A stretch of DNA of 64,000 nt. Origin: an uncultured Poribacteria bacterium (lineage in GTDB: Bacteria; Poribacteria; WGA-4E; WGA-3G). Both the position numbers and the translations under genes were made by a program. Numbering within the stretch: the first letter of the stretch is position 1; each line of letters opens with the position of its first letter. The notes under the pieces are model-generated. The model did no database searches. It was not told the DNA's origin and saw only the letters and a list, made by a program, of their open reading frames with translations. Positions 6,452-12,445 of the stretch are shown here, in pieces. The DNA lies in NCBI GenBank assembly GCA_958296135.2, contig CATQHZ020000001.1:3904001-3968000 (forward strand). The letters are read 5' to 3'.

Positions 6452-6469
6452 TTTTTCTGAATGACATTA

Positions 6470-6567
6470 TGGGGTGCTCAACTAGGTTCGCGCTCGGAAG
6501 ACCGCGCCTACAAAGAGCTGAGAAAACACCCTTTGAACCTGATCTGGATCATGCCAGCGTAGGGAAA
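6470..6567 (+). ncRNA. TPP riboswitch
   Basis: Matches the THI-box consensus GGGGTGC...CTGAGA...ACCCTTTGAACCTGATCTGGATCATGCCAGCGTAGGGAA and lies upstream of thiamine genes. Confidence 0.95.
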
Positions 6568-6596
6568 TACAAAATCAACATGTAGCAATATGGGCT

Positions 6597-6816: not shown

Positions 6817-7599
6817 ATGATGCTAACTTCCGCGAGGCACATCACTACTGTACTGCCGTGGGCAATCCTTTTCGGAATCCTCGGGGCATGGGAAGCCGGG
6901 GTGCATATTTTCAACACACCGCACTATATCTTGCCCACGCCTTCCGACATCGTCGTGACGCTCTTTGAGAAGCGAGCCCTGTTGCTGAAACACACGCTCG
7001 TCACGCTGGAAGAAATGTTGCTCGGCTTTGCGCTCGCCGCGGGCATCGGCATTCCGCTCGCCGTGCTGATGTTTGAATTTCCGGTGCTAGAGAAGGCATT
7101 CTATCCCTATGTCATCGGTTCGCAGACGGTGCCGGTGTTCGCCATCGCGCCGTTGTTGGTGCTGTGGTTCGGCTACGGCATCGCGCCGAAAGTCATCATG
7201 GCCGCGCTCATCGTGTTCTTCGCGATGGTGCTGAATACATTAGACGGGTTAAAGTCTGCCGATCCGGATACGGTAAACCTCTTCCGGATCTTGCGGGCGA
7301 ATCGGTGGCAGATTCTGTGGAAAGTCCATGTGCCATCCGCACTCCCGTCTATTTTCACTGGTGCAAAAATCGGCATATCCATCTCGACGATTGGTGCGGT
7401 GATAGGCGAATGGGTAGGCGCAAGCGCAGGCTTGGGGTATCTCATGTTGTACGCCAACGGCCAACTCCAAGTTGCACTGGTTTTCGCGGCGATTTTTTGC
7501 CTAACACTTTTAGGCCTGGGACTTTTCGGGCTGATGACGCTGTTGGAGGCATACGCTATGCCGTGGCGACGCGCATCAGCACGTCAATCCCGAACATGA
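6817..7599 (+). CDS. ABC transporter permease (NitT/TauT family; ThiX-like HMP/thiamine-precursor uptake)
   Basis: Hydrophobic protein with ILPTPS, QTVPVFAIAPL and GAVIGEW motifs; downstream of the TPP riboswitch. Confidence 0.88.
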   Translation: MMLTSARHITTVLPWAILFGILGAWEAGVHIFNTPHYILPTPSDIVVTLFEKRALLLKHTLVTLEEMLLGFALAAGIGIPLAVLMFEFPVLEKAFYPYVIGSQTVPVFAIAPLLVLWFGYGIAPKVIMAALIVFFAMVLNTLDGLKSADPDTVNLFRILRANRWQILWKVHVPSALPSIFTGAKIGISISTIGAVIGEWVGASAGLGYLMLYANGQLQVALVFAAIFCLTLLGLGLFGLMTLLEAYAMPWRRASARQSRT

Positions 7600-7704: not shown

Positions 7705-8685
7705 ATGAAAACGATAATTTGTTTGATTTTTGCTATCAGCTGTGGTATCCTATGGATAGGACAAATTGATGGCCACGCCGACGCACATAAGGCAAACGAA
7801 CTGCAAAAAGTAACGCTCCTGCTGGAGTGGTTTCCAAACGCAGACCACGTCCCGCTCTACGTCGCCCAGGAGAACAAGATTTTCGCCAAGCATGGGCTTG
7901 AGGTAGAACTCCACTGGGGCGGCGACCCGAGCGCGCCGATTAAACTCGTCGCGGCCGGGAAATATCCGTTTGCTATTGATTACCAACACGGAGTGACAAT
8001 CGCGCGAGCGGCAGACTTGCCGGTTAAAGCAATCGGGTTGCTCGTGGAAAAGCCGCTCAACACGATTAGCTTCCTTAAGAAATCCGGCATTAAAACGCCG
8101 GCGGATTTCAAAGGAAAGAAAATCGGCTACACCGTCGCACCACTGGATGTCCTCCTCTTTAACGCCATCGCCGCGGAGGCCGGGTTGGCGGAAAGTGATT
8201 ACGAACTAGTAAACGTCAGCACGAATATCTCCGCATCCCTGATGACAGGCAAGATCGACGCAGTCATCGGCCCGTTTCGGAACTTCGAGATTAACGAGTT
8301 GAAACTTGAAGGCGCGGAAGCCAGTTATTTCCCGCTGGAAGAGCACGGCATCCCAGACTATTATGAGCTCGTTATCATCTCCAACGATGCGTCTTTGCAG
8401 GAGAATCCGATGACTGCCAAAAAACTGATGATGGCGATTCGGGAGGCGATTCAATTCACGAAGGAGAATCCGGACGAAGCACTGAAACACTTTTTCAAGG
8501 CGAATCCGGACATTCGGAAAGATTTGAATGAGCTCGCTTTTCGGGATACGTTGGAGGTATTCGCCACAACGCAGGTTCAATCCGCGGAGAAGTGGGCAGC
8601 CTTCGTGAAGTTTGCCCATGAAAAAGGGTTAATCTCCAAAACAGTCACGGCGGAAGAACTGTTTATCAACGTGTTGGAAGAGTAA
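7705..8685 (+). CDS. NMT1/THI5-like substrate-binding protein (ThiY-like)
   Basis: Signal peptide; LEWFPNADHVPLYVA and GIPDYYELV motifs. Confidence 0.9.
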   Translation: MKTIICLIFAISCGILWIGQIDGHADAHKANELQKVTLLLEWFPNADHVPLYVAQENKIFAKHGLEVELHWGGDPSAPIKLVAAGKYPFAIDYQHGVTIARAADLPVKAIGLLVEKPLNTISFLKKSGIKTPADFKGKKIGYTVAPLDVLLFNAIAAEAGLAESDYELVNVSTNISASLMTGKIDAVIGPFRNFEINELKLEGAEASYFPLEEHGIPDYYELVIISNDASLQENPMTAKKLMMAIREAIQFTKENPDEALKHFFKANPDIRKDLNELAFRDTLEVFATTQVQSAEKWAAFVKFAHEKGLISKTVTAEELFINVLEE

Positions 8686-8841
8686 ACTGACTGAAGAAAC
8701 GCCGCTTCACCGTAGGGCGAGGGCCCAGCGAACGCGAATCGCCGAGGGTTCCCCCTCACCATGGTGACAGACAGTTGTAGGAGAGACCTCGGGTCTCGAC
8801 ACCTCGGACGCACTAGCCCGCGCCAGGCACCGGACAAATTC

Positions 8842-10119
8842 ATGGTAGAAAACAGAAACGTTATCATCATCGGCGGCGGCGTAATCGGGCTCGGTATCGG
8901 GTGGCAATTAGCGAAGGCAGGTGCCTCCGTCACGCTATATGAACGCGACCGGGCAGGGCGCGCCGCCTCTTGGGCTGCCGCTGGGATGCTCGCACCACTC
9001 GCCGAGGCACATACCGAAGAACCTGAACTCCTGAAGCTGGGATGCCACAGTTTGGCACGCTACCCGCAGTGGGTGAAGGAATTAGAGGCAGACGCGCAGA
9101 TGTCCATCGGTTATCGCACCGAAGGCACGCTCATCGTCGGGTTGGAGCCTGATGATACGCATCAACTTCAACATCTCTACACGTCGCAAAAACAGTTAGG
9201 GCTAGATGCTGAATGGCTAACCGGACGAGAAGCGCGTGCAATTGAACCCGCACTCTCACCGCGTGTCACGGCAGCAATCCGATGTGCAGCAGACCATCAG
9301 GTAGACAACCGCTGCATGGTTACCGCGTTGCCGCGTGCTTACCAAGCGCGCGGCGGCGTATTATGCGAAAATACCAGCGTAGAACGAATTGAGGTGAATA
9401 ACGGTGTCGCAACGGGAGTGTCAGTAGGAGAGACCCCCCGTTCTCGATGCAATACCGGCGGAGAACCCTCCCCATCTCAATTGCATCCCCCGGTAGGAGA
9501 GTCTCAACTCCCCCCGGTAGGAGAGACCTCCCGTTCTCGATGCAATACTCAGTCTCGATGCAATACCCAGTCTCAACTACATGAGGCTGACGTGATTATC
9601 CTCGCGGCGGGGCCCTGGTCATCGCAGATTCCGGGAATCCCGGATGCCATCCGTCCGCCGGTGCGTCCCGTCAAAGGGCAGATGTTAGCACTCCAGATGG
9701 AGGCAGGCATCGCCGTAGAGACGGTTATCCGCACGGTGCGGGCACGATATCCGACATCGGTGTATCTCGTGCCGAGAACCGATGGCAGACTCATCATCGG
9801 TGCCACAAGTGAGGAAATGGGGTTTGATACGCGCTTAACGGCGGGCGGTATGTTTGAACTCCTCCGCGGCGCGTGGGAGGCTGTCCCCGGCGTTTATGAA
9901 CTGCCGATTTTAGAGACATGGACGGGCTTGCGCCCGGGGAGTCGAGACAACGCGCCCATCCTTGGGCATACGCCCATTGAAAACCTGATTGTGGCGACAG
10001 GACATTATCGGAACGGCATCCTGCTCACGCCTGTCACCGCCTATGAAATATCAAAGTTAATTTTAACAGGCGAACCGTCGCCGATAATCGCGCCGTTCCA
10101 ACTTAAACGCTTTCTTTGA
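8842..10119 (+). CDS. thiO: Glycine oxidase ThiO with a repeat-derived in-frame insertion
   Basis: GGGVIG FAD motif, ASWAAAGML, PVKGQ, GLRPG, GHYRNGILL; adjacent to thiS. Start moved to ATG 8842 because the upstream part is REP sequence. Confidence 0.92.
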   Translation: MVENRNVIIIGGGVIGLGIGWQLAKAGASVTLYERDRAGRAASWAAAGMLAPLAEAHTEEPELLKLGCHSLARYPQWVKELEADAQMSIGYRTEGTLIVGLEPDDTHQLQHLYTSQKQLGLDAEWLTGREARAIEPALSPRVTAAIRCAADHQVDNRCMVTALPRAYQARGGVLCENTSVERIEVNNGVATGVSVGETPRSRCNTGGEPSPSQLHPPVGESQLPPVGETSRSRCNTQSRCNTQSQLHEADVIILAAGPWSSQIPGIPDAIRPPVRPVKGQMLALQMEAGIAVETVIRTVRARYPTSVYLVPRTDGRLIIGATSEEMGFDTRLTAGGMFELLRGAWEAVPGVYELPILETWTGLRPGSRDNAPILGHTPIENLIVATGHYRNGILLTPVTAYEISKLILTGEPSPIIAPFQLKRFL

Positions 10120-10149
10120 ACGTCGGCAGAAATACCAATTTGCAAAACA

Positions 10150-10356
10150 ATGAGAATACGCATTAACGGTGAAAACAAGAACGTCAACGCCGAGTTAACC
10201 CTCTACGAACTACTGAGTGAAATGGAAATCGAGCCAACCCAAAACGGCATCGCTGTCGCTGTAGACAGAGAAGTTGTGCCCAAAACGGCGTGGCAGAAAA
10301 AGGTGCTCGGTGAAAATAGCGAAGTTGAGATTATCCGCGCTGTTCAGGGTGGATAG
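10150..10356 (+). CDS. thiS: Sulfur carrier protein ThiS
   Basis: 68 aa; GIAVAVD and C-terminal AVQGG. Confidence 0.95.
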   Translation: MRIRINGENKNVNAELTLYELLSEMEIEPTQNGIAVAVDREVVPKTAWQKKVLGENSEVEIIRAVQGG

Positions 10357-10367
10357 CGGCCCGTTCA

Positions 10368-10648
10368 ACCGTAGCGCGAGGGAAAACCTGTCCCTCGCGA
10401 GGCTCAGAACCGCCCCCTGCAACCGTAGCGCGAGGGCCGTCACGGTCACGCCTACAGAAAATGTGCGTGTGTCGCCCCGCGTAAACACGCTACCTTTAAC
10501 TTTGTCATCTCTGCAGCCTCGCTGCAGAGATGTCCACTGTCCATCGCGAGGAACAGAACCGCCCCTGCAACCGTAGCGCGAGGGCCGTTACGCCGAAACT
10601 TTGTCATCTCTGCCGCCTCGCTGCAGAGATGTCCACTGTCCCTCGCCA
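10368..10648. repeat. REP cluster carrying two nested elements
   Basis: 'accgtagcgcgaggg...ccctcgcg' three times; inserts at 10439-10537 and 10587-10636. Confidence 0.85.
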
Positions 10649-10696
10649 TCTATGATGGATAATACAAATGAATCTGATGCTAGGAATAGCAAAAAT

Positions 10697-11122
10697 ATGA
10701 ACAGCCAAGAGCCCCGCTGGATACAACGAGCCACTAGTTTTGGCAAGGCTTTATCGCGATTGCGAGCCGCTGTTGAATTGGCGGCGCAACGCGAACTCTC
10801 CGATTTGGAACAGCAAGGGTTGATCCAAGGGTTTGAATATACTCACGAATTGGCATGGAAGACCTTGAAGAATTTCCTTGAAGCCCAAGGCGTGCAAAAT
10901 TTATACGGGGCGAGGGATACAACCCGTGAGGCTTTTAACCGAAGCCTCATTGAAAACGGCGAAGTCTGGATGGATATGATTGACAAACGCAACCTGACTT
11001 CGCATACGTATGATGAGGCAACTGCAGATCAGGTTGGGGACTCTATTCTCAACACTTACTTTGTGGAGTTTGAGACGTTGCTAAAGAGACTCGCTCAACT
11101 GAGGCAGGGAGAATCTTTATGA
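10697..11122 (+). CDS. HEPN-type nucleotidyltransferase substrate-binding protein (HI0074 family; putative toxin)
   Basis: GLIQGFEYTHELAWK and RNLTSHTYDE (RxxxxH HEPN motif). Confidence 0.9.
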   Translation: MNSQEPRWIQRATSFGKALSRLRAAVELAAQRELSDLEQQGLIQGFEYTHELAWKTLKNFLEAQGVQNLYGARDTTREAFNRSLIENGEVWMDMIDKRNLTSHTYDEATADQVGDSILNTYFVEFETLLKRLAQLRQGESL

Positions 11123-11502
11123 AATACGGATTGTCAACGCGGACGCGCCAAGAGCTCGCCAAGGTCTTCAGTCGCTACCCCGAAGTGGAAGAAGCGGTAT
11201 TATACGGTTCGCGGGCCAAAGGCACATATAGAAACGGGTCTGACATCGATCTGACACTCAACGGCAGTGCAGAACTCACACATACTATTGTCTCTCGCAT
11301 CGCGAATGACTTCTATGAGGGACCCCTGCCCTATAAGATCGATCTCTCCATTTTCAACAAACTTCGTAACCCGGAGATGGTTGCGGAAATTCAGCGCGAT
11401 GGCGTAGTACTTTACAAAAAAGGTGATTTGGGCGAGCCGGTAGGCGCCGTTGAAAACCGCGCCTATGGGGATGTACGAAAACAAAACCCATGCAAAAACT
11501 AA
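11119..11502 (+). CDS. Minimal nucleotidyltransferase (MNT; putative antitoxin)
   Basis: LYGSRAKG...GSDIDL motif; ATGA overlap with the HEPN gene. Confidence 0.9.
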
Positions 11503-12269
11503 AAATCGCGGATAAAACCTATCACTCCAGACTGCTCATCGGGACAGCCGGATACCCGAATTTTCACGTGATGACAGAAGCAGTAGCGGCAAGCGGTGCC
11601 GAAATCGCTACCGTCTCAATGCGGCGCGTGAAATTCACCGACGTGTCCGGCGAGAATGTGTTTGCGTTGCTCCGCGAGCGCAGCATCACCATTCTGCCGA
11701 ATACAGCAGGCTGTTTCACGGCGAAGGATGCCATCCTCACGGCGCACCTCGCGCGCGAGGCACTAGAGACACCGCTCATCAAACTGGAAGTCATCGGCGA
11801 TGAACAGACGCTGTTTCCCGATGTCGAGCAGCTGCTCAGTGCAGCGGTGACGCTAGTCAAAGACGGGTTCACGGTGCTGCCCTATTGCAACGATGATCCG
11901 ATTACGTGTAAGAAGTTAGAGGATATCGGGTGTGCCGCCGTAATGCCGCTCGGCGCGCCGATCGGCTCAGGCATGGGCATTCGGAACCCCTATAACCTAC
12001 AGATCATCCGCGGTAGCGTGCAGGTGCCCCTCATCGTCGATGCCGGCGTCGGCACCGCATCAGATGCAGCGGTGGCGATGGAATTAGGATGCGACGGTGT
12101 GCTGCTCAACACCGCGATTGCGAAGGCGCACCGCCCGGTGCTCATGGCAGAAGCAATGAAAAAAGCGATCGAGGCGGGCAGGGCGGCATTTTTAGCGGGC
12201 CGCATCCCGCGCAAACTCTATGCGAACGCCTCTAGCCCGCAAGAGGGGCTCATAGCACCGCTCCTGTAG
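11490..12269 (+). CDS. thiG: Thiazole synthase
   Basis: [37 protein letters not shown] and GVLLNTAIA motifs. Confidence 0.97.
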
Positions 12270-12445
12270 GAGAGACCTAAAGATCGCGGGGACAGGCCCC
12301 CGCGCTACGGTGCTCATAGCACCGCTCCTGTAGGAGAGACATCCCGCGTCTCGACTCCACTTCTGGTAGGAGAGACATCTGGTCTCGATGCAATACCGGC
12401 GGAGAGACATCCCGCGTCTCGATGCAATACCGGCGGAGAGACTCA
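12248..12445. repeat. REP cluster with duplicated thiG 3' end
   Basis: 'gctcatagcaccgctcctgtaggagagac' at 12248-12276 and 12312-12340, followed by 'ggagagacatcccgcgtctcga' units. Confidence 0.8.

Follow-up and report, generated by a model that had tools for sequence, protein, structure and literature searches.

GTAG-headed REPs are mostly intergenic, but in-frame copies have been described in many genes, some of them in unrelated enzymes (Di Nocera, De Gregorio and Rocco, 2013, PMC3733652). In the portion of that work considered here, 70 rows are given for Opitutus terrae, with inserts of up to 53 amino acids; clusters in Thauera and Rickettsia conorii encode 43–82 amino acids, uvrA is among the hosts, and neutral insertion in loops is proposed. 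REP, BIME or REPIN elements together with a RAYT (TnpA-REP) have been described as a REPtron, in which a Y1 HUH gene lies among the REP copies (PMC8266576, PMC3116915; parts of both sources). A further system is that of the Rickettsia palindromic elements RPE-1 to RPE-7, which occur in frame in existing genes at solvent-exposed sites (PMC3767692, PMC3184786, as far as the portions considered go), and, for RPE-4/6/7, orthologues carry different elements, or extended ones, at roughly the same position (PMC3767692).

In this study, an in-frame REP-derived insert was analyzed in the glycine oxidase gene thiO of a 64,000-nucleotide stretch of DNA, referred to below as the window. The insert resembles the intragenic GTAG REPs of the 2013 study in its GTAG head with a short palindrome, its RAYT partner and the presence of some copies in frame. 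However, it differs from them in REP sequence and phylum, its units are arranged head-to-tail rather than mainly as inverted dimers, and, compared with the portion of that study considered, one site is followed here through 29 loop forms in one genus. The family shares with the REPtron, as described in those parts, the GTAG tetranucleotide, a short stem, hundreds of copies, tandem arrays and a Y1 HUH transposase gene, whereas the REPtron studies cover extragenic copies and 75 of the 527 strict units here (∼14%) lie inside predicted genes. Judged from its sequence, it would be classed as a GTAG-type REP family, with head and palindrome, high copy number, a mostly intergenic location and a flanked RAYT gene. 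The Rickettsia elements are 100–150 bp long (PMC3767692, in the portion considered), whereas the thiO unit is ∼25 bp, GTAG-tagged and multiplied in tandem; the insert works like an RPE and is not one, its single elements falling short of 100–150 bp. The original prediction, made from the DNA sequence, had cited the Rickettsia elements as the precedent. The likeness stands, but the intragenic GTAG REPs of PMC3733652, in the portion considered, are a nearer precedent than the longer RPE-1. Intragenic GTAG REPs in frame are thus already known, and the present example is of value for its allelic series and its scale across the genus. No publication on REPs in Poribacteria or in ThiO was found in the open-access literature by titles and abstract openings.

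The thiO gene and the thiamine operon

The window is part of a 5.19-Mb assembly, and its nearest ThiO relatives, with 80 loci compared, are from Candidatus Poribacteria. The open reading frame at 8842–10119 on the forward strand encodes a ThiO of 425 amino acids (TIGR02352, 349.5 bits in a profile search against a cut-off of 250.8), and glycine oxidases are the best fold matches of the predicted protein. A longer start at 8761 was ruled out, as the orthologues begin at the Met of 8842. The gene is present in a single copy, the only other tblastn match in the genome being 30% identical. It is like known glycine oxidases (TIGR02352; PDB entries 1ryi, 1ng3, 4ysh and 7cyx) in fold, FAD-binding motif, substrate-binding residues and operon, and unlike them in carrying 51 residues at a short hairpin turn before the strand that leads to the AAG motif. 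The features of the operon are as follows.

6460–6582, + strand, TPP riboswitch that leads the thiamine operon (Rfam RF00059, 59.7 bits against a gathering score of 54.3)
6817–7599, + strand, ABC permease, upstream operon gene (PF00528)
7705–8685, + strand, NMT1/THI5-like binding protein, upstream operon gene (PF09084)
8777–8799, + strand, lone intergenic REP unit of the thiO array's family, 42 bases 5' of the thiO start (hairpin −4.7 kcal/mol)
8842–10119, + strand, thiO, glycine oxidase (TIGR02352, fold matches)
10150–10356, + strand, thiS (PF02597)
11490–12269, + strand, thiG (PF05690), the stop codon of which is the TAG of a REP head
12266–12442, + strand, intergenic array after thiG, of the thiO array's REP family, with a period of 34 bp (from the sequence)

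A second REP family is densely clustered at 10360–10650, with two 27-bp hairpin cassettes 99 bases apart. After this REP-rich spacer, a gene pair at 10637–11502 on the forward strand (HEPN-like and nucleotidyltransferase, PF08780 and PF18765), which we take to be toxin–antitoxin-like, lies between thiS and thiG. The pair is present in the related locus L001 and absent from the open reading frames listed for L004 and L051.

Extent and composition of the insert

The insert occupies 9424–9576, comprising 153 bp or 51 codons that replace a turn of four residues, for a net gain of 47 amino acids, in agreement with the predicted surplus of about 50 residues. The limits first proposed were 9424–9580; the start, at GTA GGA GAG, is correct, whereas the true end lies 4 bases earlier and 9577–9582 (encoding LH) is ancestral. 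Between common anchors, the segment measures 98 amino acids in the window, 51 in 65 and 52 in 11 of the 80 ThiO loci, 55 in L004 and 70 in L001, with two loci lacking an anchor. The insert is accordingly a coding addition to an older gene: the short turn is present in 76 of the 80 orthologous loci and an insert in two. The starting base is shared by the three carriers, namely the window, L001 and L004. The array is composed as follows.

9424–9576, + strand, in-frame REP-derived array in thiO, 153 bp, 51 residues
9424–9456, + strand, unit 1, 33 bp, GTAG-tagged, with a rare stem-breaking variant
9457–9492, + strand, unit 2, 36 bp, decayed, having lost GTAG; the junction that it forms with unit 1 recurs in the array after thiG and nowhere else
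9493–9516, + strand, unit 3, 24 bp, GTAG-tagged, with an internal stem deletion (sequence, repeat match)
9517–9552, + strand, unit 4, 36 bp, 97% identical to unit 1 over 32 bases and with the same rare variant (repeat match)
9553–9576, + strand, slippage-like 18-bp duplication of the unit tail (9553–9570) and a 6-bp remnant

All of these segments (33, 36, 24, 36, 18 and 6 bp) are multiples of three, and the in-frame position claimed for the insert is supported. As to the expression 'tandem array' used for it, Tandem Repeats Finder reports only an 18-bp unit of 2.2 copies at 9535–9574, and the insert is a decayed head-to-tail array with no clean tandem repeat. Kinship with the intergenic units at 12366–12430 had also been proposed, and it is closer than proposed. 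A 15-mer junction occurs three times in the chromosome, once in the thiO insert and twice in the array after thiG, 2.9 kb away, and its restriction to these two arrays points to local copying.

The region 8600–10396 is covered by a single 6.3-kb contig in each of four short-read runs, with no differing letter and no gap; the four runs are from one sample, which is possibly the source sample of the assembly. No contig joint skipping the insert was found among the joints listed (15 more were unlisted), contigs being an object that drops rare variants.

The REP family and the RAYT-type gene

The REP family of the insert has a unit of ∼25 bp, in which GTAG directly precedes a palindrome with a 6-bp stem, and the consensus folds at −5.3 kcal/mol. 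A chance match is excluded: against an expectation of 2.6, the genome contains 291 copies of the 11-mer head, and the strict pattern gives 527 chromosomal units but two in the reversed sequence. The REP origin given in the original prediction is supported. Gene interiors, by the gene calls made in this analysis, on which the intragenic counts also rest, make up 70% of the chromosome. A second pattern for this family gives 375 copies here, 136 and 1449 in the two congeners, seven in one other genus and 0–3 in each of the other 57 of the 61 genomes compared. The family has undergone its burst at the level of the genus. A loose REP census (226 candidates among those listed) was rejected, since the short patterns of families C and D match by chance (21 and 47 in the controls).

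Hairpins are weaker in intragenic than in intergenic units, with medians of −3.5 and −4.7 kcal/mol (74 versus 449 units, p = 0.0004). In the thiO array, GTAG is kept in units 1, 3 and 4 and the stems are damaged, with values of −1.3 and −2.9 kcal/mol against −5.3 kcal/mol for a consensus unit. The claim that a selfish palindrome is now amplifying in the gene gains no support from these damaged stems, nor from the latest-looking event, which is the 18-bp duplication that lacks GTAG.

A RAYT-type (Y1 HUH) transposase gene with an open frame (L093:945–2302; PF01797, 45.2 bits against a cut-off of 23) lies ∼170 kb before the window, with arrays of the thiO-insert family on both sides. Its open frame extends upstream through REP units. 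A second Y1 match, L094, has flanks without arrays of this family. With L093 as the query, no RAYT homologue was found in congener G001 (86% complete), and the flanks of the RAYT match of congener G002 contain no copy of the thiO-insert family. The small contigs C2–C4 of the assembly differ from C1 in GC content (37%, 67% and 60% against 54%) and are free of the family; they may be plasmids or contaminants of the bin.

Length series and history of the site

ThiO proteins were collected from the search matches listed (120 of 390) and from cluster look-ups (up to 15 members of nine clusters), giving the set P0001–P0182. Among the matches listed, the genus-type loop is present at one site in 61 proteins, window included, and in 29 distinct forms. 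It measures 8 residues in 31 of them, 12 in one, 19 in 11, 23 in one, 25 in three, 30 in 10, 31 in three and 51 in one, so that the length variation expected among relatives is indeed present at a shared site. In a tree with one row per loop form, the carriers constitute one clade with a support of 100/100 against nine outgroup rows. The 8-residue loop is a single REP unit substituted for part of the turn, where no target duplication can be seen, and 15 of the longer loops include a peptide of the second REP family, as a match at the protein level only.

The stem-breaking variant is found in three of 523 chromosome units. Units 1 and 4 of the insert account for two of these; L004 also carries it in its only unit, and L001 has the consensus base at that position. 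This shared variant points to in-place duplication from a founder unit, although its value as a marker of descent is weakened because it is commoner in congener G001 (four of 65 places listed). In the tree of ThiO cores, most inner branches lack support and different loop types are intermingled among cores that are 97% identical, and the tree therefore gives no order of growth versus shrinkage, which also leaves the predicted selfish growth without a direction. Some of the short loops may have arisen by contraction, and recombination may have moved loops; both are as possible as growth.

In a first version of a test for local copying, 24 of 78 arrays were positive against a shuffled mean of 1.0, a result inflated by duplicated genes. 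With controls for duplicate genes there were three pairs, a number reached by 23 of 1000 shuffles; one pair was found with overlapping flank windows (380 of 1000 shuffles) and five without overlap (one of 2000), the thresholds having been chosen after the data were seen. Local copying is a weakly supported proposition as a genome-wide rule. A pattern scan of metagenome contigs for frameshifted thiO alleles returned 0 stretches, and a protein scan returned 16 distant loci. Protein searches are blind to such alleles.

Structure and selection

A structure model based on 35 close sequences has a mean pLDDT of 68 and a pTM of 0.72. Strands at residues 189–195 and 245–248 flank a low-confidence stretch at 199–243; this low confidence may reflect the presence of the insert in only two of the 35 aligned rows, and parts of the catalytic domain are low as well. 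When a one-unit orthologue is aligned, the insert site falls on the KTPSG turn in the glycine oxidase of Bacillus subtilis (PDB entry 1ryi). Model and homology together place the insert at what would be the tip of a β-hairpin in the FAD-binding domain, as expected from the surface turn named at the outset, and the 51-residue loop is inferred to be disordered.

Outside the loop, dN/dS is 0.061–0.066 (window, L001 and L004), which by sequence comparison indicates that the ThiO core is under purifying selection. Residues Y308, R364 and R390 are invariant in the 35 aligned ThiO sequences and align with substrate-binding residues named in the portion of PMC3818420 considered. All three checked motifs are present in 59 of the 61 loop-bearing proteins. 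The terminal branch of the window is the longest in the carrier clade, at 0.052.

Other genes with in-frame units

Strict units lie inside 44 genes, at least one of them by chance (in the TAG frame), and about 40 genes carry the family in frame; thiO is one of ∼40 in-frame hosts in the genome and is not special. Among the 40 scanned, the named hosts include RsgA, ClpB, RecD2, a copper ATPase, a cysteine desulfurase, WcaJ, AnmK, GlpK, LeuS, TlyA and a D-Ala-D-Ala carboxypeptidase, and matches of other REP families lie within UvrA, CarB, RecG, ribokinase and Tgt. In ClpB (L099), residues 548–598 are an in-frame array of 4–5 units, and relatives have 18–84 residues there, with units in both orientations. 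The segment measures 18 residues in 66, 24–28 in 42 and 45–84 in nine of the 117 proteins measured among the 120 matches listed, which is the same kind of length series as in ThiO. Ten other host genes were compared with five genomes. In five of the ten (ClpB, the copper ATPase, an aldolase-like protein, AnmK and a second LeuS site) the site is common to a congener and the length is different; NifS shares one unit, RsgA and GlpK are filled in the window genome only among the genomes compared, as is one LeuS site, and WcaJ and CarB are ambiguous, as the outgroup loops vary too.

In a test independent of frame, 52 of 1099 strict arrays had stop-free coding flanks on one strand, and 48 of these were in frame and open; the remaining four have an ATG nearby and look intergenic. 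Old broken genes would be missed by this test. Spacings are multiples of three in 27 of 27 intragenic and 51 of 172 intergenic cases, in a comparison that is partly circular. At 18 of 34 independent sites the units are read in the VGETSRSR frame, where one in five would be expected (p = 2e-5), and four other frames are also used.

Discussion

The reading preferred here, with a probability of roughly three in four, is that one insertion at the base of the genus was followed by local duplication, deletion and patching, filtered for frame and tolerated at the hairpin tip. A GTAG REP unit of ∼25 bp would have entered thiO once, probably via the RAYT (TnpA-REP) transposase or REP–REP recombination, replacing a few codons at the tip of the hairpin for a net gain of four residues and being read as VGEPSRSR. 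The seeded unit would then have been duplicated head-to-tail and deleted by slippage or unequal recombination, and patches may have been copied in from other REP arrays, here probably from the array after thiG. Selection would purge frameshifts and the single frame that holds a TAG stop, and the remaining variants would be tolerated because the loop points outward from the surface and lies clear of the active site. ThiO most probably continues to supply ThiG with the thiazole precursor, the loop being tolerated baggage.

An artefact of assembly has a negligible probability: the assembly is metagenomic and repeat-rich, but the insert is spanned by one contig in each of the four runs (one sample, possibly the source) without differences, and inserts begin at the same base in other assemblies. 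The possibility of mis-assembly raised for the original prediction is thus answered within that sample. It is also very improbable that ThiO is degrading, the enzyme being impaired by the insert and the symbiont depending on salvage via the neighbouring ABC transporter. An addition of 47 residues is large, a THI5-like transporter lies within the operon and the window has the longest end branch of its clade; however, a dN/dS of about 0.06, the invariant active-site residues, the intact thiS and thiG genes and the complete motifs in nearly all loop-bearing proteins (59 of 61) argue against decay. A more serious proposal, although still an unlikely one, is that the array is a self-driven landing pad, the RAYT transposase nicking the intragenic REP and adding units. 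The open-frame RAYT-type gene between arrays of the family, the restriction of the burst to the genus, the peptide of the second family in 15 related thiO loops (at the protein level), the two orientations in ClpB and the cleavage and joining of single-stranded REP DNA by TnpA-REP in vitro (PMC8266576, in the part considered) would all be consistent with it. Against these stand the weaker intragenic hairpins, the loss of GTAG from unit 2 and of the stem from unit 3, an 18-bp duplication for which a transposase is unnecessary and the 31 of 61 ThiO proteins, among the matches listed, that still have one unit.

A co-opted function, in which many enzymes of the genus would have a common tag or pause signal in the Ser/Arg/Pro-rich peptide or in mRNA hairpins, is quite doubtful. 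The bias towards the VGETSRSR frame is the main opening for a functional reading, and pure tolerance leaves it unexplained, but selection against harmful peptides alone can give a frame bias, and four other frames are in use. The hosts include ClpB, RsgA, LeuS, RecD2, the copper ATPase and AnmK, yet have no pathway in common. The one-unit loop is retained across lineages with cores about 90% identical, whereas between cores 97% identical the loops differ freely in length and sequence, and the sites are patchy, three of them (in RsgA, GlpK and LeuS) being filled here only among the genomes compared. There is a similarly slim chance of a wider version, in which loops throughout the genome would lengthen and shorten like an accordion through their REP arrays. 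Once a first in-frame unit is present, the turn would stay open to more units, those of other REP families included, and the Ser/Arg-rich frame would have been retained on dozens of housekeeping enzymes as a disordered tag common to them. If this were true, the tag could be for modification, partner binding or sorting, and mobile elements would, through these arrays, supply new disordered regions under positive selection.

Cases of this known kind have mostly been catalogued one genome at a time. On the preferred reading of insertion followed by tolerated local change, the thiO site can be traced from an empty turn through one unit to a 51-residue array, with a parallel of up to 84 residues in ClpB. 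The natural alleles make it possible to test both the tolerance of a core enzyme for foreign peptides and whether the REP transposase or slippage drives growth. In addition, where in-frame REP inserts occur in the genus, profile matches are broken up and predicted genes come out longer.

Additional loci

The gene of the copper ATPase is split in G002 (L166:2040–2290). This was rejected as a REP effect, since the break is at a run of A, and it is apparently a one-base slip or a sequencing error in that run. Four large paralogues (L102, L112, L125 and L127), which gave no NCBIfam match at 1e-15, have REP at one homologous site with differing frames and copy numbers. L209 encodes a UvrA of 1957 amino acids, double the usual length, with three REP-like matches, which echoes the uvrA cases in the portion of PMC3733652 considered. 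L123, L124 and their paralogues (about eight) share a C-terminal domain, and the linker carries the antisense reading IETGRALL.
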